A stretch of 38,520 nt of DNA, taken from a virus (Duplodnaviria; Caudoviricetes). The translations under genes were made by a program, and so were the position numbers. Of this stretch, positions 736-32,725 are shown one piece after another. The stretch's first letter is position 1; every line of letters begins with the position of its first letter. Location of the stretch: the IMG/VR virus record IMGVR_UViG_3300022923_000035, positions 1 to 38,520 of that record; one strand, given 5' to 3'. Under the pieces are notes generated by a model. The model had not been told where the DNA came from. It worked only from the letters and a program-made list of their open reading frames with translations, and searched no databases.

Positions 736-1332
736 TTAACTTACTCCGAATAATAATATCTCTCCAGCATCTATTGTACCACCTGAGAATTTGAATTGTA
801 CTCCATCTATTGCAGTTGTAGTATTACAATATCCAGCTACAAAACTATCCATACTTAAATCTTCAAATTGATATGAATTACCTCTACCGATAAAATGTTT
901 AACAAAAGTTGTAGATGAGGGATTAAATAAATGTAAATAACCACTTACAGATTGGTCATTATCATTACCAGAATTTCTAACTAATTGTTGAAAACTTGTT
1001 GATTGTGCTAAATCTCCGTCAGATTGATAAGCTATATCTGCATAAACATCATTTTCTGAATGTTGTGTTTTAAAATGGGTTGTTGTTTTAATTGCGTCAT
1101 ACAAACTACCACCATCTCTAAAACCTACTTCAAAAAAAGCATTATCTTGTGAGCCATGAATATTAACATAATAAAAAATGTATTCCTTATATGTGCTATC
1201 AATATCAGATGTAAAGCTAATAGAGGAAGATGCACTAGCAGTTTGTTTTGATAAAAATACTAAACTTCCACCAAAGCCTGATGCCATTGAACCATTGTTG
1301 AATATTGTTGTGCCGTTAGATATTAATCCCAT
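736..1332 (-). CDS. Putative tail-fibre tip/virion protein, paralog 3 of 3
   Basis: MGLISNGTT leader; TASASSSISFTSDID, LFNPSSTTFVKH and AGYCNTT shared with the two adjacent ORFs. Confidence 0.6.
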   Translation of the reverse strand: MGLISNGTTIFNNGSMASGFGGSLVFLSKQTASASSSISFTSDIDSTYKEYIFYYVNIHGSQDNAFFEVGFRDGGSLYDAIKTTTHFKTQHSENDVYADIAYQSDGDLAQSTSFQQLVRNSGNDNDQSVSGYLHLFNPSSTTFVKHFIGRGNSYQFEDLSMDSFVAGYCNTTTAIDGVQFKFSGGTIDAGEILLFGVS

Positions 1333-1934
1333 TATTTTACCCCATACATTTTGATTATTCCACTATCTATATTTCCATTAAGAAAAGTAAATTGAACCCC
1401 AGTAATAGCAAGAGTTTCATTACAATATCCACCTGCACAATCCTCAACAGCAAAATCAGCTTGATGTGATCTACTTCCTCTAAAAATAAAATGTTTTGCA
1501 AAGGTCGTGCTAGATGGATTAAAAAGTTGTAATGTTCCAACACAACAATGGTCGTTATCGTTTCCAACATTTGGCATTAAACTTTGAGATCCTGTGCTTT
1601 GTGCTAAATCAAATCCTGTTTGATAACCTATACCTGCTCCACCATCATTTTCAAAATGATATGCTCTAAAAAAAGTAGATGTTTTTGTTGCAGTAAAAGT
1701 TGTGTCACCAGATTTACGAAAATTAACTTGAAAATTAGTATTATCATTTGACGGGTGAATATCAATAAATTTAAAAATATAAGAATCATAAGTTGAATCT
1801 ATCCCAGAAGTAAAATCTATTGATGAACTAGCACTTGCAGTTTGAGTAGAAAGTAATGTTAAACTTCCTGTTGATACTGCACTATCTAAAGCACCACCAC
1901 TTATTAATGTTGTTCCATTTGATACTACTGCCAT
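1332..1934 (-). CDS. Putative tail-fibre tip/virion protein, paralog 2 of 3
   Basis: MAVVSNGTT leader; same motifs; TAATG stop/start overlaps with both neighbours. Confidence 0.6.
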   Translation of the reverse strand: MAVVSNGTTLISGGALDSAVSTGSLTLLSTQTASASSSIDFTSGIDSTYDSYIFKFIDIHPSNDNTNFQVNFRKSGDTTFTATKTSTFFRAYHFENDGGAGIGYQTGFDLAQSTGSQSLMPNVGNDNDHCCVGTLQLFNPSSTTFAKHFIFRGSRSHQADFAVEDCAGGYCNETLAITGVQFTFLNGNIDSGIIKMYGVK

Positions 1935-2536
1935 TATGAATCCTTTATTCCATAAAGTTTAAAAGTTCCTGTTTCTATATTGCCAGAAGCAAATCTAAAT
2001 CGAACTGCATTAACTGCCGAAGTTGTGTTGCAATATCCAGCTATAAAAAAATGACTTTCTCTTGGTGCTGTAGCCATTTGACTATTTTCAGCTATATAAT
2101 GTTTTACAAAAGTTGTAGATGATGGATTAAATAAAAACAAATATCCATTATCACTAGCATCAGAATTACTATATGCTGACCTTCCAATCTGTTGATTTCC
2201 TGTACTTTGTGTCAAATCCATAGAACTGTTGTAAGATAAATTTGCATAACTATCATCTTCATTGTGTTCAGCATCAAAAACAGTAGAGGTTTTTGTTACA
2301 TTATAGTTTGAACCACCATCAGAAGAAAAATTTACATGGTACTCAACATCATTAGTTCCAGGATGTACATTAATCCATTCAATTTTATAAATAGGATAAG
2401 TGCTATCTATTCCACTTGTTATTTCTACAGATGATGAATTAGAAGCAGTAGAAGTTGATAACAAAACCAAACCACCTAATGCTACATTAAATGCACCACT
2501 ATTTAACATGGTCGTACCATTAGATATTATTGCCAT
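1934..2536 (-). CDS. Putative tail-fibre tip/virion protein, paralog 1 of 3
   Basis: MAIISNGTT leader; same motifs; AAGGA SD. Confidence 0.6.
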   Translation of the reverse strand: MAIISNGTTMLNSGAFNVALGGLVLLSTSTASNSSSVEITSGIDSTYPIYKIEWINVHPGTNDVEYHVNFSSDGGSNYNVTKTSTVFDAEHNEDDSYANLSYNSSMDLTQSTGNQQIGRSAYSNSDASDNGYLFLFNPSSTTFVKHYIAENSQMATAPRESHFFIAGYCNTTSAVNAVRFRFASGNIETGTFKLYGIKDS

Positions 2537-2566
2537 TGTTTTTCCTTACTCTGGTTTAGTTGGCCA
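2532..2566. repeat. 35-bp perfect direct repeat, copy 1 (other copy 4195-4229)
   Basis: gccattgtttttccttactctggtttagttggcca; spans WPTKPE-stop, SD and the next start codon. Confidence 0.9.
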
Positions 2567-2848
2567 ACTAACAGCGTTTACTTGTTCTACTGTCGAAAGA
2601 CCACTAGTTAAATTTCTTAATGATGTACGATAAGTTTCCCATTCAGTCTTTTTTGCGTCTGTAAGAGGACTATCTGGTAAAATTGTCCAATCACTATCTT
2701 TTAATAAAGTATTTCTTGTTGATCTTAAACTTGCAATTTCTCTATCAAAAGCACCAGCAGTCCATGCTGCTTCTTCAGCATCTCTGGCCGCTTCTTCTTC
2801 AGCAGTTAACTGAACTGAAACACCATCTACTAATTTAAATCTAGGCAT
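2546..2848 (-). CDS. Tail fibre assembly chaperone-like protein (Tfa-like C-terminus)
   Basis: LRSTRNTLLKDSDWT...WETYRTSLRNL...WPTKPE, typical of the phage tail assembly chaperone domain. Confidence 0.75.
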   Translation of the reverse strand: MPRFKLVDGVSVQLTAEEEAARDAEEAAWTAGAFDREIASLRSTRNTLLKDSDWTILPDSPLTDAKKTEWETYRTSLRNLTSGLSTVEQVNAVSWPTKPE

Positions 2849-2862
2849 TTATTTTCTCCTTA

Positions 2863-3207
2863 TTAACTCTTTGGATTATCAGTTTTAACTTGTGCTACGT
2901 GATCTTTCCAAGTAGTTGTACCATTAACATTATCCCAATACAGCATGTCTAACTGTGCACCTATATCACCATAAGCAACTTTTCTTGTTACATCTACTTG
3001 AGCACTACTCTCAGCAGTATTTCCAGCAGTTTCATAAGATGCCAATTGTTCGTTAGTCGGTTTTGTAACACCTGAAATATTCCATTCTTTAATGTATGGT
3101 CCATTACCGTCTGAGTCGTCTTGTAACAAAACGTCAGTTAAAAAATTTACACTAGAAACACCATTTGCAGCTGCATAAAGTTTTACTTTTGTTGCTAAAT
3201 TTGCCAT
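2863..3207 (-). CDS. XkdW-like tail-fibre partner protein
   Basis: LQDDSDGNGPYIKEWN...KPT and QLDMLYWD...WKDHVAQVKTDNPK motifs seen in small phage fibre-associated proteins. Confidence 0.55.
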   Translation of the reverse strand: MANLATKVKLYAAANGVSSVNFLTDVLLQDDSDGNGPYIKEWNISGVTKPTNEQLASYETAGNTAESSAQVDVTRKVAYGDIGAQLDMLYWDNVNGTTTWKDHVAQVKTDNPKS

Positions 3208-3225
3208 ATTTTTTCCTTTTATTAC

Positions 3226-3233
3226 TATTTATA
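3226..3233 (-). promoter_or_regulatory. T4-type late promoter TATAAATA
   Basis: Exact motif, intergenic, upstream of 2863..3207. Confidence 0.7.
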
Positions 3234-3671
3234 TTATTCGATTATTCTGTATCCACCCCATTGAACAGTAATTCCACTTGAATAAGCTGTACTACTTCCA
3301 CCAGCAGAATTAAAATATAATTCAATATAATCTGTATCGTTAAGATCAGCATAACCACAAACTAATTGAGGATAATTATTAGCTGCTGAAGCCATAGAAC
3401 CAGATTCTACAAATCTAGTACCACTTTTGTAAAGACCAACTAAAAATCTTTCTCCACTTATTCCAAGTAAATAAACATAACCATAAATAAAATATTTTCC
3501 AGCAACTCCTGGTGTAAATTTATCTGATGAAAATTTACTTTGTGGATCAAAAATTTCTGACCATCCAGTTATTTTAGTCCATGTACTTGCTGATATAGAT
3601 TGATCTCCATTTTTACGAACTAAAAAAGTTGGAGTGTTAACCTGTTCTATTCCGTTTGCGTATAATGGCAT
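3234..3671 (-). CDS. C1q/TNF-like beta-sandwich putative tip protein
   Basis: NTPTF, KFTPGVAGKYFIY and LNDTDYIELY resemble the C1q-like pattern; paralogous to 3684..4199. Confidence 0.55.
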   Translation of the reverse strand: MPLYANGIEQVNTPTFLVRKNGDQSISASTWTKITGWSEIFDPQSKFSSDKFTPGVAGKYFIYGYVYLLGISGERFLVGLYKSGTRFVESGSMASAANNYPQLVCGYADLNDTDYIELYFNSAGGSSTAYSSGITVQWGGYRIIE

Positions 3672-3683
3672 AATTTATTTTCC

Positions 3684-4199
3684 TTATTCTACAATTTTCA
3701 TTGCACTAAAAACTGTTTCTTTTGCACTACTATCTGCATTACCAGCAATAGCACAAGAACCACTGTCGTTAGTTTGTACAAAAGCATACATTTCAAAATA
3801 ATCATTTACTGATACATCTTGTATCCAAGTTTCAGTTAAAACAACTTCTCTAATTGAACCAGCATTATCAAAAAAAATATTTTTTCTTCTTTGATTTCCA
3901 TTATCATAAAAATAAGCATCTGCTCTATATAACTCATTAGCACTATCATAAAATGTTACTTTAAATTGAAATAAATATTTTCCAGCTTCTGTTGCAGTAA
4001 ATTTATTATTAGTTAAATCAAAAACACCAGATGTACTTTCACTTGAAACAGCTTCAAAAGTAAGTTTTCCTGTAGTTGAATGATTTATATCCTGATTACT
4101 TGTTTTGTGTGCAGAAAAGTATGGAGTATTAACACCACCTATACCACTAGCCAACGCACCACTACTGATAATAGTTGTTCCGTTAGATATGATCGCCAT
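3684..4199 (-). CDS. C1q/TNF-like putative tip protein with shared N-terminal leader
   Basis: MAIISNGTTIISSGALASGIGG then NTPYFSA, FTATEAGKYLF, VNDYFEMYA. Confidence 0.6.
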   Translation of the reverse strand: MAIISNGTTIISSGALASGIGGVNTPYFSAHKTSNQDINHSTTGKLTFEAVSSESTSGVFDLTNNKFTATEAGKYLFQFKVTFYDSANELYRADAYFYDNGNQRRKNIFFDNAGSIREVVLTETWIQDVSVNDYFEMYAFVQTNDSGSCAIAGNADSSAKETVFSAMKIVE

Positions 4200-4201
4200 T
4201 G
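4134..4201. repeat. 68-bp direct repeat, copy 1 (other copy 4934-5001; 2 mismatches)
   Basis: Encodes the identical 22-aa leader MAIISNGTTIISSGALASGIGG; the copies are exactly 800 bp apart. Confidence 0.92.
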
Positions 4202-4208
4202 TTTTTCC

Positions 4209-4547
4209 TTACTCTGGTTTAGTTGGCCATACTACTGCCTCAACTTCTTCAACAGTAGTTAAACCATTTGTTATATCTCTTAATGCCTGTCTATATGTTG
4301 ACATTTCTGTAGATAATGTCTGGTCAGATAAGGCAAGGTAATCTGTTTCTGCAATTAGTTTATTTCTTTTGGTTCTTAAATCTTCCATAGCCATATCAAA
4401 TTCTACAATAGGTAATTGTGCTTGTATGTCAGCTTTAGAAATAGGTGTTGTTCCATTTTCCCAAGTGATTTGATTAATGTCATTATCACTTACACTTACT
4501 TCTGCGTTTGGATTTATTTTAAGTATTGCTTTTATTATATTTGTCAT
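4209..4547 (-). CDS. Tail fibre assembly chaperone-like protein
   Basis: LRTKRNKLIAETDY...YRQALRDIT...WPTKPE C-terminus, shared with 2546..2848; the N-terminal half differs. Confidence 0.75.
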   Translation of the reverse strand: MTNIIKAILKINPNAEVSVSDNDINQITWENGTTPISKADIQAQLPIVEFDMAMEDLRTKRNKLIAETDYLALSDQTLSTEMSTYRQALRDITNGLTTVEEVEAVVWPTKPE

Positions 4548-4549
4548 AA

Positions 4550-4999
4550 TTATCCTTCTATTTCAAATGCTGTTATTCTGCCTGTATTACCATTATTTAA
4601 ATAAACTGTTCCACTGAGATTTCTAAAATAAACTTGATAAGTAAGTTGAGATGTGGAGCTTGGAGAATCTAGTGTAGACATTGAAAGAGGATTCCAAGTT
4701 AATCTATTTTCTGTTATACCAGTGCTAGTTCCTAAATTTGTTGAATCTCTATAAATAGTAAAATAACCTCTACCAGAAGCTGTTTCTGATATTGATGTAA
4801 CAATAACAAAAATTTTATTTGATGAAGAAGCTGGAGTTATATTAACTGAAAGTGTGTTTGACGCAGTTACAAATGAAGTTGAGGTTGTTTCTCTAAATGT
4901 AGTATCTGTTGCAGTAACAACTTGCAAAACCTTACCACCTATACCACTAGCCAACGCACCACTACTGATAATAGTTGTTCCGTTGGATATGATGGCCAT
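4550..4999 (-). CDS. Putative tail-fibre tip protein with shared N-terminal leader
   Basis: 22-aa leader then GKVLQVV, ITPASSSNKI, LDSPSSTSQLTYQV, ITAFEI; a beta-sandwich family common in marine phage tail loci. Confidence 0.6.
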   Translation of the reverse strand: MAIISNGTTIISSGALASGIGGKVLQVVTATDTTFRETTSTSFVTASNTLSVNITPASSSNKIFVIVTSISETASGRGYFTIYRDSTNLGTSTGITENRLTWNPLSMSTLDSPSSTSQLTYQVYFRNLSGTVYLNNGNTGRITAFEIEG

Positions 5000-5001
5000 T
5001 G
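4934..5001. repeat. 68-bp direct repeat, copy 2
   Basis: See 4134-4201. Confidence 0.92.
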
Positions 5002-5002
5002 A

Positions 5003-8000
5003 TTAGACCTCTTCTATATTGAACTTATATTTCTTACCTGATTTGTTATTAATCAAAAATAGATCGTTAGCACCTTCTTGGATAGTCCAATTACCTTTTG
5101 TACCATCAATAGAGTTACCTGTACCATCTTCGTTAGATAAGTTTAAGTCTCCAGTGTATATGTTTGCCCATACGTTACCAGAAGCACCTAAGTCTTGTGT
5201 ATTTGTTGTAAACGGTACGATACTTCCAGCAGTTCTAACAATTGTATGTGTTGTATTACCTAAAGTAATTTCATTACTTGCTGTAGCAGTAGACGCACTA
5301 GCATAAGCACCAATTATTATATTATTAGTTGCTGTTGTTGTGGTTCTTCCAGCACCGTATCCTAAAACAACGTGACATTGTGCATCATTAAAAGTACATG
5401 CTGCCTGAGATCCAATCGCAACGTTTTTTTGCAAATTTGTTGGAGTAGTAAAAGACGACATTGCAAATCTACCTAATGCAACGTTGTCGGAACCACCCTG
5501 ATTATCATGCAAAGAATAGTTTCCAACTGCTACGTTACCGTCACCAGATGTAATACAACTCATTGAATTAGCACCCACAGCGGTGTTTTTTCCACCAGTG
5601 TTTATGGTATTCATTGCATAACCACCAATAGCAGTGTTTGAATATGCACTTATTGTCATTCCAGAAGCACTGAAAACACTTGTACCAATACCAATGTTAT
5701 TGCTACCAGTCATACCTGAATTGTTGGCATACCCTGCACATTGACCTATCGTAATGTTATTACTACTCTTAGAGTTACCTGAATTGTAACCCATTGTAAT
5801 ATTACCCGTAACACCGAAATTAGATGCATATGCACCGTAAGCAGATTTATGTCCTATAGCAATGTTATATTGAGATGTAGATGTCCATTTACCTGCCTGA
5901 GAACCAATACCAATATTACCTATTGAAGTGACATTATTACCAACATAACTTAGTGAACTATTACCAATACCAATATTACAACATCCAACTGTCAGACATC
6001 CTCCTGCAAAAGCACCTAAAGATATGTTATATTTACCAGAAGTCACGGAATTCATGTTATAATCACCAATAGCAATATTTTGATTACCAGTGTGTATTGT
6101 TTTTAAAGCACTTCTTCCAATAGCAATGTTTGATTGAGCACTTGCAGTTAAAGTACATTGAGAGCCTGTATTTAGACCTATGAGTACGTTATGCGTACCT
6201 GATCCTCCATCACCACCTATTGAATCGGTTACAACGTTATTAGAATTGCATATATTAACAGCAGCACTACCACCTGAAGCAGCCGCTAATACGATACCAC
6301 CACAAGATGAACTATATGTTAAAACTTGACCGTCTGTTGATCCTAAACCTGGAATTCTTAATAAAGTATGTGTTGCGTTACCTAAAGTAATTTGATTTGA
6401 AGCAGTATTATTTGAAGGTGCAGCATAATGACCTATTGAAATGTTATTAGTAGTTGCACTATCAGCACCAAAACCAGCATTTTTTCCTATATTTACATGA
6501 AAACATCCATTGTTATTTGCACTTGTACCAACAGCTACATTACAATATCCTGTATCACCATAACCTGCAGCTCGGCCTATAACTACGTTACAATTTCCAC
6601 TACCAAGTTTAGCTGCAACTGAACCAACAATTACGTTACCTGATCCAGCTGAAGATTGCCAAGTTTCATCACCAACAATTACGTTACTATTATTAGTTCC
6701 AGAAGCACCACAGGCTGCTCTCCATCCTAGAATTGTATTGTATTGGCCAGCTCCTAAACAATATGCCTTCCATCCCATTACTGTATTACCTTTATGAGAA
6801 GAAAGTGAACGACCAGCACAAGCACCATGTAAAGTATTCATTGCTCCAGTAGTTAATGAATATCCACTTTGAGAACCTGAAGCAACGTTGTCGCAACCAG
6901 TTGTTAAACTATTTCCTGCTGCATCTCCAATAACAGTGTTGTTAAGACCTGTCATTGTAGTATTTTGAGTTTCAGAAATTACAATGTTTGTAGTACTTGA
7001 TGTTGGAGTATAGTCACATCCACCACCACCTGAAGCAGCCGCTAATACGATACCACCACAAGATGAACTATATGTTAAAACTTGGCCATCTGTTGAACCT
7101 AAACCTGGAATTCTTAATAAATTATGTGTTGCGTTACCTAAAGTAATTTCGTTAGATACAGTTCCAGAACTTGGTTGAGCGTCATATCCAATTACTATAT
7201 TGTTTGTCCCAGTTATACCAGCATATATACCCATACTACCTGACCCTGTAGCAGCATATGTTCCTATTGAAGTGTTACAATCCCCATTAAAAAATCCTGA
7301 ATCAGTACCAACAGCAGTATTTTTACTAACACCTGCACCTGCTTGACTCATAGCTTCTGTTCCAATAGCAGTATTTTGACCACCATAAACCACATCTTTT
7401 AGACTCAGCCATCCAACTCCAACGTTATTTGAACCATTGGTTATTAAACAACCAGAATCTGCACCAACAAAAGTGTTTCGAGCAGCAGAAGTAATGCATT
7501 GTCCAGCAGCATCACCAATAACAGTATTATCAGTACCTGTCATTGTAGTATTTTGAGTTTCAGAAATTACAATGTTTGTAGTACTGGATGTTGGAGTATA
7601 GTCACATCCACCACCACCAGCAGCCGCTAATACGATACCACCACAAGCAGAACTATATGTTAAAACTTGACCATCTGTTGAACCTAAACCTGGAATTCTT
7701 AATAGATTGTGTGTTACGTTACCTAAAGTAATTTCATTTGAAGCAGTAGCATTTGTAGGTAAGGCGCAATGACCAATTACTATATTGTTAGTACCTCCTC
7801 CAAGAGTACCGCCAGCACAAGAATAGTTTGCAAATCCTCCAATACTTATGTTACAACTACCAGTAGATATTCCATCCCCAGCATTATCACCCATACTTAC
7901 GTTAAAGCAACCAGTTGAAGCACAATATCCAGCACTATTACCAATAAGCACGTTGCCGTTACCTGTAATTGTACCACTTTTTCCTGCGTAAGAACCAACT

Positions 8001-9934
8001 AAAATATTATTAGTACCCGCTATATTTGTATTTGGATTATCTTGTACTGTAATGTTAGTATTACTAGAGTTTACTGACCAGTCACATCCAGCAGCAGCCG
8101 CTAATACGATACCACCACAAGATGAACTATATGTTAAAACTTGACCGTCTGTTGAACCAAGACCAGGTATTCTTAATAGGTTATGGGTTACGTTACCTAA
8201 AGTAATTTCATTACTTGCCGTAGAAGTTGAAGGTGCAGTATAATGACCAATTAATATATTATTACTACCTGTAGATACTGTGGGTAATGCACAAGCGGCA
8301 CCTGCATAAGATCCTAAAAGTACATTGCAAGAACCTATTGTTAGACTATTACCAGCTGCTCTTCCTACAGCAGTGTTTTTGGAACCAGTTGTATTAAGTA
8401 ATCCAGCAAATCCACCAATAAATGTGTTATGACTAGCTGTTCTTGTACACGAACCAGCAAGGTGACCAACAAGAGTATTGTTATAACCACCAATGCATGT
8501 ATTTGGACTATCTTGTACTGTAATATTAGTATAACTACTGTTTACTGACCAGTCACATCCACCAGCAGCAGCAGCCGCTAATACGATACCACCACAAGAT
8601 GAACTATATGTTAAAACTTGACCGTCTGTTGAACCTAAACCTGGAATTCTTAATAGATTATGTGTTGTGTTACCAATTGTGATTTCGTTGGAAGCAGTAG
8701 TAGTAGATAATTGAGCGTTAAATCCAATGGCAATGTTATTAGTTCCATTAAGAGCTTCACAACCAGCTTGTGCCCCAAGCATAACGTTACATGCAGCACC
8801 ATCTTCTAAACTTTGTCCTGCTCTAGCTCCTATTCCGACATTTGCCTGAGAAGCATTATTCAGCATTGCTGCAAAACCAATTGCAACGTTACATGCACCA
8901 CTAACGGATCTTCCAGCAAAATAACCAATATTTACACTACAAGCTGCATTAGTTCCACACCATCCAGCATATGCACCAAGAGAAACAACTCCGCTACCTG
9001 TAGTTTTACAACCAGCATTTTTACCTATAGATATATTGTTTAGACCTACTGAGTTATATCTACCAGCATTTTCTCCTAAAGCTATGTTATTTACACCTGT
9101 ACTATTAACACAACCAGAGTTTTGTCCTAGAAATAAGTTGTTTGTACCTGTTCCACCATTACCACCTAGTGTATCGGATACAATGTTACTACAGTTACAT
9201 ATATTAACAGCACCACTAGAAATCGTTGTGCTTCCACCTAATGCAACAGCAGAACCATTAATTGTAATTGAACAATTTGTTAAACTAGAGTTTGCAATAT
9301 TTGAAATAGTGTTTGATGATGCGTTAATAGTTTTGTTTGTTAATTCTTGTGAACCTGTTAATGTTGCAACATTAATACCACTTACAGTAAGAGATGTTGG
9401 TGCTTCTATATTTGCAACTAATGTTCCAGTAGAGATGGATAAGTTACCTGTGTCAGAAGCTGTTGCTGTAGTTGTACCTACAACAAATTTGTCAGCCGAT
9501 TCGTCCCAAGCAATAATAGCATTATCACCAGTAGATCCTCTTTCTATGATAATACCAGAATCGTTTGCATTTGTTGATGCACCTGAATTTAATTCTAATA
9601 AATTGTCGTCTAAAGTTGTATTGGTAGAATTGACAGTTGTTGTTGTTCCATTAACTGTTAAGTTTCCTGATACAGTTAAATTATCGTCAACTGTTACTGT
9701 TCCACCTGCTGAGTCGATTGTAAGATTACCAGAAGACGTATCAATTTCATTATCTCCTGTTACTGCGACTTGAATATTTCCTGTTGTTTTACCTACTACA
9801 GTTCCACCTGCTGTGCTTCCATCATGTACTCTTACTGTGTTAAGAGTTGTATCTACTGTAAGTTCACCGACCGAACCTGTATAGGCGTCATTTTCAGCGG
9901 TACTTCCTCTTCTTAATTGTAATATTGTTGGCAT
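5003..9934 (-). CDS. Long tail fibre, 1643 aa, with six YadA-head-like repeat modules
   Basis: Mtd_N-like start (LQLRRG...GELTVDT...VHDG); many NxxIGxxAG ~14-aa repeats; five copies of a ~40-aa linker; C-terminal NIYTGDLNLSNE...WTIQEG...GKKYKF domain; GAGG SD. Confidence 0.9.
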   Translation of the reverse strand: MPTILQLRRGSTAENDAYTGSVGELTVDTTLNTVRVHDGSTAGGTVVGKTTGNIQVAVTGDNEIDTSSGNLTIDSAGGTVTVDDNLTVSGNLTVNGTTTTVNSTNTTLDDNLLELNSGASTNANDSGIIIERGSTGDNAIIAWDESADKFVVGTTTATASDTGNLSISTGTLVANIEAPTSLTVSGINVATLTGSQELTNKTINASSNTISNIANSSLTNCSITINGSAVALGGSTTISSGAVNICNCSNIVSDTLGGNGGTGTNNLFLGQNSGCVNSTGVNNIALGENAGRYNSVGLNNISIGKNAGCKTTGSGVVSLGAYAGWCGTNAACSVNIGYFAGRSVSGACNVAIGFAAMLNNASQANVGIGARAGQSLEDGAACNVMLGAQAGCEALNGTNNIAIGFNAQLSTTTASNEITIGNTTHNLLRIPGLGSTDGQVLTYSSSCGGIVLAAAAAGGCDWSVNSSYTNITVQDSPNTCIGGYNNTLVGHLAGSCTRTASHNTFIGGFAGLLNTTGSKNTAVGRAAGNSLTIGSCNVLLGSYAGAACALPTVSTGSNNILIGHYTAPSTSTASNEITLGNVTHNLLRIPGLGSTDGQVLTYSSSCGGIVLAAAAGCDWSVNSSNTNITVQDNPNTNIAGTNNILVGSYAGKSGTITGNGNVLIGNSAGYCASTGCFNVSMGDNAGDGISTGSCNISIGGFANYSCAGGTLGGGTNNIVIGHCALPTNATASNEITLGNVTHNLLRIPGLGSTDGQVLTYSSACGGIVLAAAGGGGCDYTPTSSTTNIVISETQNTTMTGTDNTVIGDAAGQCITSAARNTFVGADSGCLITNGSNNVGVGWLSLKDVVYGGQNTAIGTEAMSQAGAGVSKNTAVGTDSGFFNGDCNTSIGTYAATGSGSMGIYAGITGTNNIVIGYDAQPSSGTVSNEITLGNATHNLLRIPGLGSTDGQVLTYSSSCGGIVLAAASGGGGCDYTPTSSTTNIVISETQNTTMTGLNNTVIGDAAGNSLTTGCDNVASGSQSGYSLTTGAMNTLHGACAGRSLSSHKGNTVMGWKAYCLGAGQYNTILGWRAACGASGTNNSNVIVGDETWQSSAGSGNVIVGSVAAKLGSGNCNVVIGRAAGYGDTGYCNVAVGTSANNNGCFHVNIGKNAGFGADSATTNNISIGHYAAPSNNTASNQITLGNATHTLLRIPGLGSTDGQVLTYSSSCGGIVLAAASGGSAAVNICNSNNVVTDSIGGDGGSGTHNVLIGLNTGSQCTLTASAQSNIAIGRSALKTIHTGNQNIAIGDYNMNSVTSGKYNISLGAFAGGCLTVGCCNIGIGNSSLSYVGNNVTSIGNIGIGSQAGKWTSTSQYNIAIGHKSAYGAYASNFGVTGNITMGYNSGNSKSSNNITIGQCAGYANNSGMTGSNNIGIGTSVFSASGMTISAYSNTAIGGYAMNTINTGGKNTAVGANSMSCITSGDGNVAVGNYSLHDNQGGSDNVALGRFAMSSFTTPTNLQKNVAIGSQAACTFNDAQCHVVLGYGAGRTTTTATNNIIIGAYASASTATASNEITLGNTTHTIVRTAGSIVPFTTNTQDLGASGNVWANIYTGDLNLSNEDGTGNSIDGTKGNWTIQEGANDLFLINNKSGKKYKFNIEEV
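6279..8685. repeat. Five near-identical 115-bp linker repeats at 6279-6393, 7035-7149, 7620-7734, 8094-8208 and 8571-8685
   Basis: Core gcagccgctaatacgataccaccacaagatgaactatatgttaaaacttg...cctggaattcttaat, encoding ITLGNxTHNLLRIPGLGSTDGQVLTYSSSCGGIVLAAA. Confidence 0.95.
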
Positions 9935-10008: not shown

Positions 10009-10239
10009 CTATAAACTACCTAAATCCATTGTCAATATATGACCTAAATTATTATTATCAAAGGTGTCTATACTTAATACATTACCAAATGCGTCTGTTG
10101 GAGAAGATGAAGGTGCTGATTCCCCACCGCCTAAATCGAAACTATCTAATAAACCAGACAATTTATCAGTGTCAGACAAATAGTGTAATCTATTTGATTG
10201 TGTGTATATTGTTCCTAATGTGTTTCCTATATAAGCCAT
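10009..10239 (-). CDS. Small virion/fibre connector-like protein
   Basis: 76 aa; MAYIGN start; AGGA SD; DLG motifs (FDLGG, C-terminal MDLGSL). Confidence 0.55.
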   Translation of the reverse strand: MAYIGNTLGTIYTQSNRLHYLSDTDKLSGLLDSFDLGGGESAPSSSPTDAFGNVLSIDTFDNNNLGHILTMDLGSL

Positions 10240-10248
10240 TTTTTATTC

Positions 10249-10581
10249 CTACGTTGAAATATCATCCACTGTACTTACTAATACGTCAACTGAATTTGAA
10301 GTATCAGATTTAACTTTAAGTACGTCTCCACTTTTAACTACATACTTTGCCCCACCGTCTATTAATTGTAAAGTTGAACCTGTATTAATAGGTGCATTTT
10401 TAATTAAATACACATCAGTAGAAGTATCTACATCAACAACATAAACATCTACAAAAACTTGTGAACCTGTTGTATTTGACAAAGATATGCCAATAATAGT
10501 ATCATAACTATCAGCTGTAAAAAGTGTTGAAGCTGTTGTTCCAACATTTCTTGCAACATATCTTCTAAAATTTTGTGCCAT
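10249..10581 (-). CDS. Small beta-rich virion protein
   Basis: 110 aa, MAQNFRRY...YLIKNAPI...GAKYVVKSGDVLKV; lies in the tail locus directly behind a late promoter. Confidence 0.6.
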   Translation of the reverse strand: MAQNFRRYVARNVGTTASTLFTADSYDTIIGISLSNTTGSQVFVDVYVVDVDTSTDVYLIKNAPINTGSTLQLIDGGAKYVVKSGDVLKVKSDTSNSVDVLVSTVDDIST

Positions 10582-10586
10582 AATAC

Positions 10587-10594
10587 TATTTATA
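10587..10594 (-). promoter_or_regulatory. T4-type late promoter, 5 nt before ATG
   Basis: TATAAATA-GTATT-ATG. Confidence 0.7.
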
Positions 10595-11315
10595 GTGCTA
10601 TTGCCATTGCAATAGCAAATCCTTTCGATGCTTTATCATCTAATTGTGTTTGAATATTAGATGTCACTCCATCTAAATATTGAAATTCTGTATTTGAAAC
10701 TGATCCATCAGCAACTACACTTGCATCCACAGTTGATAATTCAAAACCACCTGTTATAGAATTGTAAGCCAATACTTGTTTATCTGTTGAACCAAGACCA
10801 GGTATTCTAAATAAGTTTATATTATTATCACCTAGTGTAATTTCATTTGTTGCTGAACCGTTACTTGGTTGAGCATTATATCCTAAAAGAATATTATTTG
10901 TTCCCGTTGTAATATTACAACCTGCATTGTGACCAATTGCTAAATTACAAGAACCAGTTGCTGTTTTTAATGCCTCATTACCAATAGCAATATTAGAAGT
11001 ACCAGTTGTTACATTTTCTAATGCACGAGCACCAATACCAATATTAGAACCTGTAGTGGCAGAATTTAAAGTATAATAACCAATAGCAATTGTACATGAA
11101 CCTGTAAGATTCGTTATTGCTTGATCTGAAATGACAATGTTTGTAGAAGATGGCGACCAGTCGCAGCCTGACGAAGCACCACCAATCTCTTTGATAGTAC
11201 CAGCATCATTGATATACAGCTTTTGTGCTGATGTATCAACAGCTACCTCTCCACTTACGATATTACTCGTAGTTGGAGTGGTAGTACCTCGTTTTAACTT
11301 TATAACGGTCGCCAT
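10590..11315 (-). CDS. Short tail fibre protein with one YadA-like module
   Basis: IKLKRG...GEVAVDT N-terminus; GCDW module start; NEITLG...FRIPGLGSTD linker; EFQYLDGVTSNIQTQLD; AIAMAIAL end. Confidence 0.8.
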   Translation of the reverse strand: MATVIKLKRGTTTPTTSNIVSGEVAVDTSAQKLYINDAGTIKEIGGASSGCDWSPSSTNIVISDQAITNLTGSCTIAIGYYTLNSATTGSNIGIGARALENVTTGTSNIAIGNEALKTATGSCNLAIGHNAGCNITTGTNNILLGYNAQPSNGSATNEITLGDNNINLFRIPGLGSTDKQVLAYNSITGGFELSTVDASVVADGSVSNTEFQYLDGVTSNIQTQLDDKASKGFAIAMAIAL

Positions 11316-17317: not shown

Positions 17318-18095
17318 TTAACCATTCGTTTAGTAAAGGTACTTTTTTATTGTCTTTCATTCCAAACCACAAACTTTTAGTTTTTTTTAAATTTAGTTTT
17401 TCACAGATATTATCTGCTATGTTTCTATATTTATCGTAAAAATAATTAGGTTCAAAATGCATCAATTGTTCTGCTAAACTTATACCAGCAAGATTTACAT
17501 ATGCCTCTTTTTTATACATTTCAAAAGTACCTATTCTCTTTTTAGAAAATAAAATTCCAACTCTATGATATTGTATTCCGTACATTTTACTAAAACTAAA
17601 AGCAACATACCCAACTTTACTTAAATCATATATTTGTTTTACTCCAGATCCACCTGCCCAAGCCAAATCTATAAATGAATTTTTTGTTAAGATGTTTTTT
17701 GTATTTTCATGCTCATCTGCTGTATTGTAAAAAGGTAAACTTAAAAAGTTTGTTTTATTTTTTAAACTAATATTTGATTTAAAAAACTCTTTTGCCTGAC
17801 ACATATATCCAGGATATTCGTTAACATTTACAACAGGTCTTAAACTATGTTCTAACATAGATAACGTTATAGATTCAGATATGCCATTTGTAATATAAAC
17901 ATACTTAAAATCTTTTAAACCTTTAAATTTTATATGTCCTTTGTTTAACCATGGTACAAAATCTTCTATAAATTTATCTTGTATCTCAAATCTATTTTTT
18001 ATTAGTTTTTCATGGTCGTAAATATTGTTATAAAAATTTACTATAGTAGATTTAATTTCTGGAAACTGAATTGTATATGATGGTGTTAAATACAT
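17301..18095 (-). CDS. PLP-dependent fold-type I enzyme (compact aminotransferase-like)
   Basis: ITNGISESI, IDLAW, FSFSKMYG...RVG (Schiff-base Lys motif). Confidence 0.65.
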   Translation of the reverse strand: MYLTPSYTIQFPEIKSTIVNFYNNIYDHEKLIKNRFEIQDKFIEDFVPWLNKGHIKFKGLKDFKYVYITNGISESITLSMLEHSLRPVVNVNEYPGYMCQAKEFFKSNISLKNKTNFLSLPFYNTADEHENTKNILTKNSFIDLAWAGGSGVKQIYDLSKVGYVAFSFSKMYGIQYHRVGILFSKKRIGTFEMYKKEAYVNLAGISLAEQLMHFEPNYFYDKYRNIADNICEKLNLKKTKSLWFGMKDNKKVPLLNEWLNEKIK

Positions 18096-19171
18096 CTTTC
18101 AATACTTTCTTCAAATTGCTTGTGTTCTTTAAATATAAATGGTAAACAAAATACGGCCGTTGTTATATTTTCTGAACCATCTTCAAGTATGTAACCTTCT
18201 TTTCTCATTTTTTTAATGAATGTTAGTGACTGTTTAGATGTTTCAAAATCAATAGCTCCCATACATCCATATTGTCGTGTGGCAGATTTTATTTGAATAT
18301 GATCTAAATTTGTTTTTTTAATTTGATTTAGAGTTTCTAAAGCAACAGCACTACCTATTGGGTGACCAGAATATGTAAATCCATGATTAAACATTTTAAT
18401 TGACTTTTCTATTCGTTCATTTATTAAACAAGCACCCATAGGAAAATATCCATTTGTTATTGCTTTTCCTAAAACTAAAATATCTGGTTGAAAATTAAAC
18501 TTTTCAAAAGCAAACATTGTACCTAATTTACCAAATCCCGTAACCGTTTCATCAAGTATTACTACACCACCTTTTTGTTGATACTCTTTCAATACTGTCC
18601 ACACTTCATTTTCCCAACTATAAACACCACCTGCACCAACAATAGGTTCTATTATAACAAATGACATATCAAATAGACCATTTGTTACTTCAAATAATTC
18701 CTCACTATTTTTGAATTTATACACACTTAAAGGATTTGAAATATTCCAAAATTTATTAATTTGTTGATCACTTGCGTTAGCACTTAATATTGTTGATCCA
18801 TGATAACTATTTTTACCACACACAGCAACTGGTTTTTGTGCAAGTTTTATAGCAGTTTCTACAGCTGCACTACCACTGTTTGTGAAATAAACTTTTTTCA
18901 TATTTGTTATTTCACATATCTGTTGAGCATATGTTTCAGTAACTTGACTATGATATCCTGAAAAATTACTTGTATAAGGTAGTTTTTTTGTTTGCGTTAT
19001 AAGAGCAGATTTTATACTTTCATTTGAATATCCTAATGGTACATTCCACAATCCTGACATTGTGTCTATATACTTTTTACCATCTGTGGTGTAAAGTGTA
19101 TAATTTTCTGCGTGAGATATTTGTTCTGCTGATGAATTAATCTTTTTAAAACTTAAAATTTCTGACGACAT
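18086..19171 (-). CDS. Class III aminotransferase
   Basis: DTMSGLWNVPLGY, FTNSGSAAVETAIKLA, SYHGST, DETVTGFGKLG, PDILVLGKAITNGYFP; start MSSEI with GAGG SD. Confidence 0.9.
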   Translation of the reverse strand: MSSEILSFKKINSSAEQISHAENYTLYTTDGKKYIDTMSGLWNVPLGYSNESIKSALITQTKKLPYTSNFSGYHSQVTETYAQQICEITNMKKVYFTNSGSAAVETAIKLAQKPVAVCGKNSYHGSTILSANASDQQINKFWNISNPLSVYKFKNSEELFEVTNGLFDMSFVIIEPIVGAGGVYSWENEVWTVLKEYQQKGGVVILDETVTGFGKLGTMFAFEKFNFQPDILVLGKAITNGYFPMGACLINERIEKSIKMFNHGFTYSGHPIGSAVALETLNQIKKTNLDHIQIKSATRQYGCMGAIDFETSKQSLTFIKKMRKEGYILEDGSENITTAVFCLPFIFKEHKQFEESIERCI

Positions 19172-19599
19172 AATAACCAAACCTCATACCCATTATTTAA
19201 TTTTACTTTATCTTGCTCAACATAACCTAATCTTTGGTTAAATTTTAAATATTTATCACTACACATAGACCAGTTTTTTGTCCACTGGTTTGTAGTCACG
19301 TCTGTTAATGCTCTTGCTAATTTTATACCTGCACCTGGAGTTTTTTTATCTGAAATTAAAAATCCATCATACATTTCATTATCAACTATAGTATACCAAT
19401 ATATAGCTTTTAAGTCATTATCAAAAATGCCTAACCAGTTATCTTTTCCTTTATAGAATTTTTTAATCCAAGGCCATTTTTTTGAAGCAAGTAATAAATG
19501 TTTTTTCCATTCAAAAAAATCTGCATGCCAAGTATCTACAAGATTTTGTTGTTTAAGCCAACTATCAACTTCTATATAATCAATATTTTTTATAATCAC
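19153..19599 (-). CDS. Putative GNAT-fold protein
   Basis: PGAGIKLARAL and LKFNQRLGY resemble GNAT motifs A and B. Confidence 0.5.
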   Translation of the reverse strand: MIIKNIDYIEVDSWLKQQNLVDTWHADFFEWKKHLLLASKKWPWIKKFYKGKDNWLGIFDNDLKAIYWYTIVDNEMYDGFLISDKKTPGAGIKLARALTDVTTNQWTKNWSMCSDKYLKFNQRLGYVEQDKVKLNNGYEVWLLCRQKF

Positions 19600-19889
19600 T
19601 CAATATCTTCTAAACTAAAAGAAATTAAATTTGTTTCATTATGTGAGTTTCTTAAATTATTGTTTTCAATTGCTCGATCATCATTTACGAAATTGATATA
19701 ATCATCTAAGGTTGTCCATTCTGCAAGGGTTGATCTAGTTAAACCATCTTCAGAAATGGTTGTAATAGTTTCTTTCATTTTACCTGCATTTATAAACTCA
19801 GTTTTTAATGTTCCAAATGATTCGGTTGGTTCGTAAAAAACTACATCTACCGATGGTCTTTGTTGTATAAGTTTTATTTTTTTTGTCAT
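19596..19889 (-). CDS. Hypothetical 97-aa protein heading a late operon
   Basis: No catalytic motif recognised; ATG 5 nt after TATAAATA; ATGA overlap with the next gene. Confidence 0.6.
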   Translation of the reverse strand: MTKKIKLIQQRPSVDVVFYEPTESFGTLKTEFINAGKMKETITTISEDGLTRSTLAEWTTLDDYINFVNDDRAIENNNLRNSHNETNLISFSLEDIE

Positions 19890-19894
19890 AGTAT

Positions 19895-19902
19895 TATTTA
19901 TA
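19895..19902 (-). promoter_or_regulatory. T4-type late promoter, 5 nt before ATG
   Basis: TATAAATA-ATACT-ATG, overlapping the upstream stop codon. Confidence 0.65.
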
Positions 19903-20347
19903 TAACTCCTACTAGGTGCACTCTATCCTGATTAGATGCATTTAAAGCTGTATGATATTGTGTAGTATCTACAACATAATAGTTTCCATCAGCTGGATAA
20001 TGTTTTACTTCATTATTTATAATCATAAAACAATCTTTATTTGTTTCAACAGGTATGTGTATTCTTTTTGATAAGTCTTTATGATAAGTATAACATGTTT
20101 TTGATTTTAAATTCATTACTCTTGTACGATACATTTTTAAATCTGATAAAATACTGTTAACATAAGGTAGATCAAAAATAAATGTGTTAAAATCTGTTTC
20201 TTTATATCCCATTTCATATTTCTCATTCCATTTACCTACACCCCAAAATGGATCTAAATTATCTTTAGTACCTTGAAGACAAATTTGTTCGTCAAACTTA
20301 GGCAGTAATTTTAATTCACTTTTTATTTTTTCTATATCTATGTTCAT
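19898..20347 (-). CDS. 2OG-Fe(II) oxygenase, Asp/Asn beta-hydroxylase-like
   Basis: RVMNLKSKTCYTYHKD, RIHIPVETN, DTTQYHTALNASNQDRVHLV. Confidence 0.8.
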   Translation of the reverse strand: MNIDIEKIKSELKLLPKFDEQICLQGTKDNLDPFWGVGKWNEKYEMGYKETDFNTFIFDLPYVNSILSDLKMYRTRVMNLKSKTCYTYHKDLSKRIHIPVETNKDCFMIINNEVKHYPADGNYYVVDTTQYHTALNASNQDRVHLVGVI

Positions 20348-20979
20348 TTTAAATATTTTCTTTCATATAAACTTTCATAATTATCGGGTAAAATTTCATC
20401 TTCAAAAGACAAATAGTATTTTTTATATTTTTTATAAGACCTATTAAGAACTTTCATATATTCCAAATCATCAGCTTCAGGTTCCCATGGAGCGCCTAAA
20501 GCAAAAGTATATTTTGTCTTATCAAACGTATTGAACATTCCATGTGGCCATTTACCACTTATAATGTAAGGTTTATTTATTTTTGGCACATATTTTTTTC
20601 CCGTTTTAGATATAAAATAGAGAGAATCAACATTACCCCTAAAAACAAATCTAAATTTATGTTGCCATGTTTTAAATTTTTCAGGAGAACAATCTATATG
20701 TGGAGCATTATGATTATTTGCTTGTGTTGTAATTATCATTATTCTACTTTTTTTAGCCCACGTAAACAAATACTTTTCACACCATTCTATCAATTCAGGC
20801 ATCAATAATGCTATATCACTCCATTTTCCATCACGTGTCATTATAGGAATGTGATGACAAGTTCTATATTCATCAACAATCATTTGATCATAAGATATGC
20901 TGTCTAACACACTTAAAACATTTGGAGGGTTGGGAATGTCTATTGGTAAAAATTGCAGTTTTGAAAAATCTATGGACAT
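20344..20979 (-). CDS. Cupin/2OG-Fe(II) oxygenase-like protein
   Basis: APHIDC (HxD) and WPHGMFN (distal His). Confidence 0.6.
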   Translation of the reverse strand: MSIDFSKLQFLPIDIPNPPNVLSVLDSISYDQMIVDEYRTCHHIPIMTRDGKWSDIALLMPELIEWCEKYLFTWAKKSRIMIITTQANNHNAPHIDCSPEKFKTWQHKFRFVFRGNVDSLYFISKTGKKYVPKINKPYIISGKWPHGMFNTFDKTKYTFALGAPWEPEADDLEYMKVLNRSYKKYKKYYLSFEDEILPDNYESLYERKYLK

Positions 20980-21398
20980 ACTGTAACTTCTTTTACTCTA
21001 TGTGGTTGATTAAGTACCCAATCTATTACAGATATACAATACTCAATTGACATTTTCTTTTTATCTATATGTGCTACTCTAGGAGAATCAAAATATCCAA
21101 ATCTAACTATTGTTGTATTAATTCCTTGATAGAATAACTGATGATTTGCTTTATCTAGTGCTGATTTCTCAACAGCGTAAATATGTTTGACTTTTTTTGT
21201 TTCATCAGGAGAATTAGATCCAATATTGATAATTCTTTTATTTAATTCTGCAGCCTGATATAATAATTTAACTTGTTCAAATCCATTGTGTTTACAGTTT
21301 ATAAAAACATCACAATCTTGTAAACTATCAACTGTATTGTATTTTTCACGTAACATTTTTCCAAGGCCTCTACGAGTGCCAGTTATATAAAATTTCAT
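20970..21398 (-). CDS. Minimal short-chain dehydrogenase/reductase
   Basis: MKFYITGTRRGLG Rossmann motif, IINIGS, YAVEK (YxxxK); start corrected to 21398. Confidence 0.8.
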   Translation of the reverse strand: MKFYITGTRRGLGKMLREKYNTVDSLQDCDVFINCKHNGFEQVKLLYQAAELNKRIINIGSNSPDETKKVKHIYAVEKSALDKANHQLFYQGINTTIVRFGYFDSPRVAHIDKKKMSIEYCISVIDWVLNQPHRVKEVTVCP

Positions 21399-21412
21399 AT
21401 GTATATTTAGTT

Positions 21413-21420
21413 TATAAATA
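21413..21420 (+). promoter_or_regulatory. T4-type late promoter, 5 nt before ATG
   Basis: TATAAATA-ACTGT-ATG. Confidence 0.7.
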
Positions 21421-21425
21421 ACTGT

Positions 21426-22043
21426 ATGACATTGGCAGAAATATACAAAAAAAGAAAACAAACCACAAAATATGACCAAGAAAATTATCCTGATATGGAT
21501 ACTGTTAAAAAAATATTAACAGAAACTTTTAAAATTACAGCTTCAAAGCAAAATCTATATCCATACAAAGTACACGTTTTAGGTCCAAATCATAAAAATA
21601 TTAAAAAAGACTTATATGATGTAATATGTCACCAATCAGGAGGTTTCAATAATATTAATATACTCCAAGCCCCATATTGTTTAATATTTACAACAAGGTG
21701 GGTAAATAATCCTGATCCTGTTATATATGATAGAATGAAAAGAGGACATACATATACCGTTTGTGATCTTAAATTATACAATAGTGCAAAAGCAGCAACT
21801 TGTGTAGAAATAGGAATGTTTAGTAAGATATTAACAGGCTTGTGTTTAGAAAAAAATATAAATGTTTCATATACATTATGCTTTCCAGATTATGAAAAAC
21901 ACAAAGATTTATGGAAAAAATTATCATTTATAAAAGATCCTGTACTTTTTAGTATGCAATTAGGATATAGAACTGGATTAGTAAACTATAATAAAGAAAA
22001 AAAACCTCACATTGATGATGTAATAAGTTGGATAAAAGATTGA
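21426..22043 (+). CDS. Nitroreductase-like flavoprotein
   Basis: KKRKQTTKY, TASKQNLYPYKVHV, QAPYCLIF, EIGMFS, MQLGY. Confidence 0.7.
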   Translation: MTLAEIYKKRKQTTKYDQENYPDMDTVKKILTETFKITASKQNLYPYKVHVLGPNHKNIKKDLYDVICHQSGGFNNINILQAPYCLIFTTRWVNNPDPVIYDRMKRGHTYTVCDLKLYNSAKAATCVEIGMFSKILTGLCLEKNINVSYTLCFPDYEKHKDLWKKLSFIKDPVLFSMQLGYRTGLVNYNKEKKPHIDDVISWIKD

Positions 22044-22068
22044 CTTTTATATAAAAATCTGTTATAAT
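22040..22068 (+). promoter_or_regulatory. Sigma70-type early promoter
   Basis: TTGACT (22040-45), 17-nt spacer, TATAAT (22063-68) with extended TG; ATG 5 nt downstream. Confidence 0.8.
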
Positions 22069-22073
22069 ATAGT

Positions 22074-24962: not shown

Positions 24963-25557
24963 TGGTTGCAGTTGGAGTTATAAAAAATTTAATTCCATTT
25001 TTCATCCTAATATGGATTGTTCTTGGCCTAAATGGCCCGAAATATTAGCAAATAAACTCAATATGGATTGTGTTAATTTGAGTTATAGTGGCTCAGGACA
25101 AGAATATATTTTTTCTACGTTAATTGAATATTTGTCAAACAATATGAAAAATATAGGACTAGTTATACCAGCCTGGTCTAGAGCACCAAGACGTGACTAT
25201 CAAACTAACAATATATGGACAAATTTAAGAAATGATGATAGAGGAGACTCAAAGTATTATACTTGTAGAAGTCTAAGATATTTTTACATGTTTCAAATTT
25301 TTTGTGAAAGATATGATTTACCATATAAACAAGTACAAATGATAAGTGGTTTAGATTTAAAAACATTATTAACCAATTCAATTTCTAAAAAAATTGATGA
25401 AAAAAGATTTATTGGTTGGCCGATTGAAAAAGGTATAGGAGGTTATTCTATTCATAATAAACTAGATCAAAATACTCATTTTATATCTGAACAAGACAGA
25501 CATCCAAATGCTGAAGGACAAAAAATAATAGCTGATTTAATTTATGAAAATTTATAG
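24940..25557 (+). CDS. SGNH/GDSL-like hydrolase or acyltransferase
   Basis: VSGCSW, NLSYSGSG, DRHPNAEGQ (DxH). Confidence 0.7.
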   Translation: MKKILLVSGCSWSYKKFNSIFHPNMDCSWPKWPEILANKLNMDCVNLSYSGSGQEYIFSTLIEYLSNNMKNIGLVIPAWSRAPRRDYQTNNIWTNLRNDDRGDSKYYTCRSLRYFYMFQIFCERYDLPYKQVQMISGLDLKTLLTNSISKKIDEKRFIGWPIEKGIGGYSIHNKLDQNTHFISEQDRHPNAEGQKIIADLIYENL

Positions 25558-32724: not shown

Positions 32725-32725
32725 A

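Follow-up and report, generated by a model that had tools for sequence, protein, structure and literature searches.

A shared N-terminal leader may join three cassettes of separately encoded tip proteins to a conserved phage fibre end

We have analyzed an array of small genes that stands behind a long tail-fibre gene in IMGVR_UViG_3300022923_000035, a single virus contig of 38,520 bases that is a fragment of an incomplete genome; this entire contig is called the window here. The fibre ends in a conserved domain, and five of the six putative tip proteins encoded in the array begin with the same short leader peptide. The explanation that we favour, and which as a whole seems to us reasonably probable, is that the domain forms a socket and the leader a plug, and that three trimeric cassettes of tips compete for the fibre end. 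All open reading frames (ORFs) of the array lie on the minus strand, where an earlier note on this DNA had placed them. Genes are named below by their lowest coordinate.

5003..9934, minus strand: fibre-type protein of 1643 amino acids (aa), assigned from PHROG tail spike and virion structural families; N-terminal Mtd_N (E 4.3e-10), glycine/asparagine-rich repeats, putative socket at the C-terminus
5003..5150, minus strand: putative socket, the last ~48 residues of the fibre (DLNLSNE...WTIQEG...GKKYKF), predicted to form a four-strand antiparallel meander
4934..5004, minus strand: first copy of a 71-nucleotide (nt) leader repeat, 96% identical to 4134-4204
4550..4999, minus strand: tip of cassette 1, leader and GKVLQVV-type body, probably TNF-like
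4209..4547, minus strand: tail-fibre assembly chaperone-type gene of cassette 1, Phage_tail_APC (Pfam E 1e-11)
4134..4204, minus strand: second copy of the 71-nt leader repeat
3684..4199, minus strand: tip of cassette 2, leader and gC1q/TNF-like body
3234..3671, minus strand: partner in cassette 2, short degenerate leader (MPLYANG) and gC1q/TNF-like body
2863..3207, minus strand: XkdW-family gene (E 1.8e-12), which follows C1q-type pairs here and in HTVC019P/HTVC010P
2546..2848, minus strand: Phage_tail_APC chaperone-type gene (E 1.7e-15), of a kind usually found after the triplet and here before it
1934..2536, minus strand: subunit A of cassette 3 (phrog_14820), predicted galectin/ConA-like beta-sandwich
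1332..1934, minus strand: subunit B of cassette 3 (phrog_14820)
736..1332, minus strand: subunit C of cassette 3 (phrog_14820)

Since two Phage_tail_APC genes and one XkdW gene divide it, the array consists of three cassettes (4550+4209; 3684+3234+2863; 2546+1934+1332+736) with chaperone-type genes of their own, rather than of six alternative single tips. The nine ORFs are all intact and tightly packed. The fibre terminates in NIYTGDLNLSNE...WTIQEG...GKKYKFNIEEV, and a gap of 3 nt separates it from the first leader. The tip genes had been described as directly following the fibre end; this holds for the first of them, but three unlisted genes (4209-4547, 2546-2848 and 2863-3207) are interspersed among the rest.

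Five ORFs of three families were reported to start with M-[AG]-[ILV]-[IV]-S-N-G-T-T, and this is correct: a degenerate DNA pattern for the leader has 5 matches in the window, all at these starts, against a mean of 0.00 in 100 shuffles. The proteins of 4550-4999 and 3684-4199 begin MAIISNGTTIISSGALASGIGG-K and MAIISNGTTIISSGALASGIGG-V, respectively, which bears out the claim that two ORFs share 22 identical N-terminal residues. The triplet proteins begin MAIISNGTTML (1934-2536), MAVVSNGTTLI (1332-1934) and MGLISNGTTIF (736-1332), and the sixth ORF, 3234, has the looser start attributed to it (MPLYANGIEQ). At the DNA level the 4550 and 3684 leaders form the 71-nt repeat with 96% identity, and the other three are 63-72% alike. 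Across relatives the conserved leader extends to about residue 16, with G7 and G14 invariant, and the point at which leader and body are exchanged is the Gly-Gly that closes the leader. Conservation is at the peptide level: all synonymous codons are used, in 232 distinct DNA leaders. On a leader matrix, itself built from such leaders, none of 182 upstream starts scores. The tip starts that were inspected have purine-rich sequence upstream. Read-through fusion of fibre and tip was considered and rejected, as gap and frame vary (-1 to +12 nt, all frames, in related loci); no in-frame fusion was seen among the fetched loci or the 150 best domain representatives.

The other putative partner comprises the last ~48 residues of the fibre, preceded by ~25 residues of generic shaft repeat. 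A match was found at the C-terminus of gp28, the P-SCSP1u tail fibre (PDB 8I4M, 18 chains, E 3.3e-23), a fibre described in the available part of PMC10575957 as a hexamer of trimers with its distal part not resolved. The domain was matched in 45 annotated records, 44 of them from cyanophages. A profile of 38 rows (threshold E<=0.001) retrieved 6,689 representatives, some of which matched through the generic shaft repeat in its first half; 127 of the best 150 representatives match the full domain. In all 127 the domain lies no more than 9 residues from the C-terminus, so that its terminal position has direct support in the sequences, and in the domain-seeded set it caps fibres of many different N-termini. 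As a monomer it was modelled (pLDDT 84) as a meander of four strands, for which Foldseek gave no match at E<=0.001; a fold search returned propeller-blade-like meanders (best Z 4.3), which are uninformative. Peptidase S74 is a C-terminal domain with a Ser-Lys cleavage motif. Identity of the fibre end with an S74 chaperone was rejected: there is no S74 hit, and conservation does not extend to the lysine after S-N-E, which the window lacks. The remainder of the fibre (window 5600-9300, minus strand) is made of repeated ~180-aa modules with a recurring linker between them, and the fibre of a relative, L001, has fewer modules (1275 vs 1643 aa).

The association of leader and domain was surveyed from three independent seeds: the triplet body alone, the leader DNA pattern and the domain. 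The body-seeded test was blind to leader and domain and covered 80 loci, which were not dereplicated. Leader and domain occur together in 34 of these, and 21 have another leader and no domain (with at least 1.5 kb of upstream sequence seen). None has the domain with another leader. The two loci with a leader and no domain are both 99.9% copies of the window phage, on contigs that start at or inside the array; the remaining 23 have less than 1.5 kb upstream. The corresponding Fisher value, 1e-13, overstates independence because the loci are redundant. Independence of the association is suggested instead by the spread of leaders over families and their scatter on the body tree, where leader class changes 30 times against a shuffled mean of 35.5 and at least 7 changes are forced (a quick tree with weak support). 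The other two tip families behave alike: 4550-type and C1q-type bodies elsewhere start with MAYIG.., MALT.., MTSILK.. and the like and have no domain nearby, and independent 4550-type genes directly behind a domain (L211, L248, L343, L351) carry the leader. Tip homologues that retain the leader in genomes lacking the domain, which the earlier note had named as the finding that would speak against its idea, were sought in all three tip families and did not turn up.

The leader-seeded scan covered 37 of 64 parts and gave long flanks for 80 loci. A domain was found within 2.5 kb upstream in 93 of 126 loci, and within 30 nt in 80; upstream sequence was too short in 27, and six have no domain, namely five siphovirus major tail protein genes and one 28-codon ORF. 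The leader-bearing genes form 14 body clusters, 13 of which occur within 4 kb behind a domain, glycine-rich and tail-collar types included. As some clusters may be distant kin, we put the number of unrelated bodies with a leader behind the domain at about a dozen. One such arrangement (L051, L053 and L055, for example L051 2469-6203) is a triplet of ~400-aa glycine-rich (PF21722) paralogues, each with a leader.

A survey of genes behind homologous domains for co-varying leaders had also been proposed, and its outcome is favourable: among 158 distinct pairs of domain and next gene, 84 have the strict leader and 15 a looser form. In a further 26 the next gene has no leader and is followed within 4 kb by a second domain with leader, and 33 have neither an adjacent leader-like gene nor a later domain with leader. 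Co-occurrence of peptide and domain is thus directly supported at the sequence level, and gene context makes it likely, to our mind, that the leader docks on the domain. Instead, the leader might nucleate trimers or be recognised by a chaperone, or it might be a translation-start cassette that was inherited together with the fibre end. It is short, it stands beside shaft-like repeats in some families (L005 type), and chaperone-type genes follow the tips. However, the same bodies and the same chaperone type carry other leaders where the domain is absent, so that the leader tracks the fibre end and not the body or the chaperone; it is conserved as protein, and gaps of variable length and frame exclude read-through fusion. 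We regard a non-docking role as very unlikely.

Some observations weigh against the socket and plug. The case rests on gene context and homology. Of the 33 leaderless domains (25 followed by other genes, 8 by none), only 9 have at least 4 kb of sequence remaining. What remains of the leader in the gene behind the domain of cultured cyanophages is at most M-x-hydrophobic-hydrophobic..G, and so the strict leader is lineage-specific. The siphovirus major-tail-protein family has the same nine starting residues and no domain (5 loci with long upstream DNA), and the short motif alone is therefore not diagnostic. Within the array, the 3234 leader scores just 1.0 on the matrix, compared to 42-45 for the other five. 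On the body tree, 11 of 118 branches are starred and 6 rows are mislabelled 'other' (5 with GTG starts). Among the socket-bearing loci of a total of 377, leader genes from two or more body families were seen behind a single domain in the window only. Finally, the window is a 38.5-kb fragment and a second domain may lie elsewhere. Because of this, and because related genomes often have two domains, the cassettes may or may not alternate on the same fibre. Prediction of a complex of three domains with three leaders (residues 1-32), both entered as alignments, gave ipSAE 0.00 in two runs, but the controls were not folded and the partner fold was uncertain, and we count it neither way. The siphovirus look-alikes, such as L198 5001-5402 and L226 5001-5399, are taken as chance resemblance.

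In a second explanation the leader docks but the cassettes do not compete: they would have their own sites on further socket-bearing fibres outside the contig, or form a fixed chain or branch, and each particle would carry all three. Two-domain genomes are common (the 26 pairs above; L084). HTVC010P-like pelagiphages have the same cassette types in similar order and one fibre, and several cassettes behind one fibre suggest simultaneous display in these phages. Head-to-tail chains of trimers joined by N-terminal hairpins have been modelled for the A-1(L) neck fibre (PMC10966104, in the part available). Yet no second domain was found in the window (33.5 kb upstream) or in G001, a 12.85-kb contig that extends downstream, and a scan of the tip C-termini revealed no socket-like end on any of them. 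Arrays of the HTVC010P type also use a different leader per cassette, as separate sites predict, whereas here one leader is common to all, and two of the leaders are identical over 22 residues. We consider separate sites rather unlikely. Some relatives are a mirror image of the window: L005, L017, L018, L023 and their kin have two socket-bearing fibres and one tip set, and behind their first domain comes a coiled-coil-like gene of 70-80 aa that hits neither Pfam nor PHROG.

The tip bodies are of domain types known from fibre ends. A profile of 3684/3234 matches gC1q domains (adiponectin, E 1e-19; C1q-related factor, E 1e-9) and phage fibre C-termini (9K09, E 5.7e-5; 8KE9, E 0.0035); as single sequences, neither has a hit to Pfam C1q. 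The 4550 profile matches residues 502-658, the C-terminal domain, of the 658-residue orf22 in PDB 9EFK (18 chains, E 1.6e-27), which we take to be the tail fibre of phage LME-1. Passages of PMC12407071, in which orf22 is not named, describe hexameric trimers of LME-1 fibres with unmodelled distal ends. Language-model (Atlas) neighbours of 4550 are Pgp3-C (0.95, the family being assigned on 15% of members), BC2L-C N (0.90) and C1q (0.83). As these are TNF-like domains, 4550 probably shares a TNF-like fold with the C1q pair. The earlier description of the tips as structurally unrelated is accurate at the profile level (hhalign probabilities of 0.1-1% between tip families, and 0.5% for 4550 vs the C1q pair), but in view of this shared fold the bodies likely fall into about two classes. 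In Pfam and PHROGs, none of the six tips hit a member of the gp38 family.

The triplet model (pLDDT 96) is a sandwich whose nearest structures, at a middling Z of 7-8, are GH32 C-terminal domains and galectins (best match Z 8.1, root-mean-square deviation 3.2, 121 residues aligned; galectin-9 Z 7.2). Foldseek gave no match at E<=0.001, no solved relative was found by sequence, and the ESM Atlas returned only unnamed viral clusters for 1934. Runs of phrog_14820 genes contain exactly three members in all 44 bounded leader-bearing cases; with other leaders, 20 of 32 runs have three genes, one has six and eleven have one. The conservation of the triplet follows directly from these comparisons. The family occupies three places in each of HTVC010P, HTVC019P and HTVC034P. 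As three consecutive paralogues with position-specific leaders, 1934/1332/736 are probably an A/B/C heterotrimer, which is the simplest reading. The model for it is the virophage DSLV2, in which three consecutive paralogues form one lipopolysaccharide-binding heterotrimer according to the abstract of PMC12724248, although that protein has a gp37-like needle fold, while for the window triplet a galectin/ConA-like sandwich is predicted. L120 (2-6190), L108 and L112 carry up to three phrog_14820 triplets per genome, each with its own leader set.

On these grounds, our proposal is that the conserved fibre C-terminal domain is a socket and the ~16-residue leader a plug for separately encoded tips. 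Three leaders would dock on the trimeric fibre end, giving one trimeric head per cassette: a homotrimer of 4550, a mixed trimer of the C1q pair and the A/B/C heterotrimer of the triplet. The chaperone-type gene of each cassette would assist assembly or docking of its head, and the tips would bind cell-surface sugars of a SAR11-type host. Beta-strand complementation as the docking mode is a guess. With one socket type, the heads would compete for one fibre end and a single burst would yield particles with mixed tips, without DNA inversion or a diversity-generating retroelement (DGR). That the cassettes compete for one socket is somewhat less assured than an even chance. Comparative genomics thus favours the earlier socket-and-plug idea, but its unit would be a trimeric cassette and not a single gene, with about two fold classes among the tips. 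All cassettes have a single orientation, and neither an invertase with inverted crossover sites nor a reverse transcriptase with template repeat was found among the 43 window ORFs.

The array is no assembly artefact, as two other viral contigs match it at 99.9% and contigs cover all 30 of its bins in 4 of 4 DNA runs. Parts are also covered by RNA-library contigs in 4 of 4 runs (26-29 of 30 bins, with low cover at 4026-4646), although this does not demonstrate transcription; a promoter/terminator scan was at chance level (29 vs 26.2 expected).

The 71-nt repeats (96%) and a 158-nt repeat (73%) flank whole cassettes, and the interval is hypervariable among strains. Both facts would suit a genetic reservoir, in which only the fibre-adjacent tip is used and recombination between leader repeats moves other cassettes into its place. 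Against this, the nine ORFs are intact and closely packed, with purine-rich sequence upstream of the starts inspected. Distance does not silence a gene, since subunits B and C retain the leader in every triplet although 0.6-1.2 kb separates them from the domain. There is no recombinase in the window and the leader DNA of the triplet is only 63-72% alike. We hold a reservoir to be very unlikely. No deletion between the 71-nt repeats was seen in contigs of the 4 DNA runs, although contigs cannot prove its absence; a joint of 4200-5029 in run X4 was rejected as a deletion form, since it bears 27 letters of a different, L001-type fibre end and so belongs to another strain. The relative L001 shares both flanks with the window (97% and 88%) and has one unrelated leader-bearing tip in place of the array. 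At 7807-7972, between this tip and the next conserved gene, L001 retains fragments with 92-95% identity to the beginning of 2546-2848 and to the end of 2863-3207; they make up a short chaperone gene that is either a hybrid or a remnant. In 2 RNA-library runs, contigs follow the window through the fibre end and the first 28-33 codons of 4550, beyond which they diverge.

Matching cassette types stand in similar order in HTVC010P, HTVC019P and uncultured relatives, but each cassette there has an N-terminus of its own and the domain is absent. The array looks like a set of podovirus-type cassettes re-fitted with one leader, and the 22-residue identity of 4550 and 3684 would mark a recent graft. 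A wider view, which we put forward as a speculation less likely to hold than to fail, is that a single socket takes three trimeric tips, one of them a heterotrimer, as host-range bet-hedging at the assembly step; that the peptide was grafted on podovirus cassettes; and that this is one of several standard joints by which SAR11 phages and cyanophages trade tips across morphotypes.

The docking-peptide principle itself is already known. Excerpts of PMC13352976 on podophages of Klebsiella (KP32, K11 and KP34) describe a conserved N-terminal peptide of receptor-binding protein 2 (RBP2) that docks on a branching domain of RBP1; a 29-residue deletion abolished RBP2 function, and a fusion of the peptide carried a foreign enzyme. 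The likeness is a short conserved N-terminal peptide on separately encoded, unrelated receptor-binding bodies. In the KP32 system, however, the site is T4 gp10-like and near the fibre N-terminus, the fibre keeps a binding domain and RBP2 is the one user, so far as those excerpts go, whereas here the partner would be the last ~48 fibre residues, the tips are small and lectin-type, and three cassettes carry one peptide; no gp10-like domain was hit by Pfam on the window fibre. In the T-even type (T2, T6, S16), gp38 sets host range and caps the distal end of the trimeric gp37 fibre, to which its N-terminal part attaches (PMC12032242, in the portion available). There too the fibre end has no binding domain of its own and a separate gene comes directly after the fibre, but in that portion gp38 is described as monomeric and present once per genome, with an attachment domain that is folded and with a polyglycine sandwich. 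The window has a peptide of ~16 residues, trimer-type bodies with many folds, triplets of paralogues and several cassettes. With a partner domain that is distal and not gp10-like, and tips that are not gp38, the window system belongs to neither family.

Other phages show parts of the arrangement. P-SSP7 genes 37-39, three paralogues directly behind the tail fibre, are homologous to 4550 (gp37/38/39: E 5e-18, 4e-8, 6e-15), but the fibre ends in another domain and the paralogues have other N-termini. The available text of PMC5520035 proposes a tail-fibre role for them, describes no docking peptide, and reports resistance-breaking mutations in genes 37 and 38, secondary to gene 23 mutations. In the P-SSP7 locus (L175 4866-9737) a third domain that looks conserved (EIFWENGQ...WTIV) ends the fibre, and four 4550-type genes whose N-termini are their own come next; this is a candidate for a third socket-leader class. 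In the A-1(L) neck fibre gp82-gp81-gp80, trimers were modelled docking via N-terminal beta-hairpins onto the preceding C-terminal trimer (PMC10966104, in part), but as a fixed bead chain, and homology was neither tested nor found. HTVC010P, HTVC019P and HTVC034P contain a 4550-type gene with chaperone, a C1q pair with XkdW and a phrog_14820 triplet with chaperone, mostly annotated as hypothetical; they differ in having other leaders, distinct per cassette, and no WTIQEG/GKKYKF domain. No description of the domain-peptide pair was found in the literature searched, which reached few subscription papers and no supplements.

A SAR11-type host is suggested by gene make-up, the phages that match the triplet, and the source of the DNA. 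The window encodes a DUF4815 protein, which we assume to be linked to VrlC, along with several long proteins of fibre type, and it has a block of genes for sugar modification and radical-SAM proteins. Among 50,697 annotated records the triplet family (phrog_14820) is matched in Pelagibacter phages only (6 records). The sequencing runs containing the stretch are salt-marsh metagenomes (24 among the runs listed). PMC7029224, in the part available, gives a matching gene make-up for T4-like SAR11 phages, in their host recognition cluster.

With the socket and plug, a very common fibre end would gain a function that can be tested, as would hundreds of 'hypothetical' genes in the hypervariable host-recognition regions of the most abundant ocean phages. 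If the idea is correct, small swappable tip genes, and not the long fibre, would determine host range in these phages. If three cassettes do share one socket, this would be a route to particles of mixed specificity with no rearrangement of DNA, and the domain of 48 residues and its peptide of 16 would together make a compact protein joint. The idea can be tested now, since the domain is present in the cultured phages P-SCSP1u, P-GSP1 and S-CAM4 and the tips in HTVC010P and P-SSP7.

Two further regions of the window deserve mention. Between the fibre genes and the gene for DUF4815, at 18086-33667, lies a block of sugar-pathway, carbamoyltransferase, aminotransferase and radical-SAM genes that run in both directions. 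At 10009-11315 (minus strand) a fibre-type gene with the end KGFAIAMAIAL is followed by a 110-aa gene and then by a 76-aa MAYIG gene; this trio also heads the tip arrays of HTVC010P/034P-like phages and is possibly a second class of joint with an adaptor.

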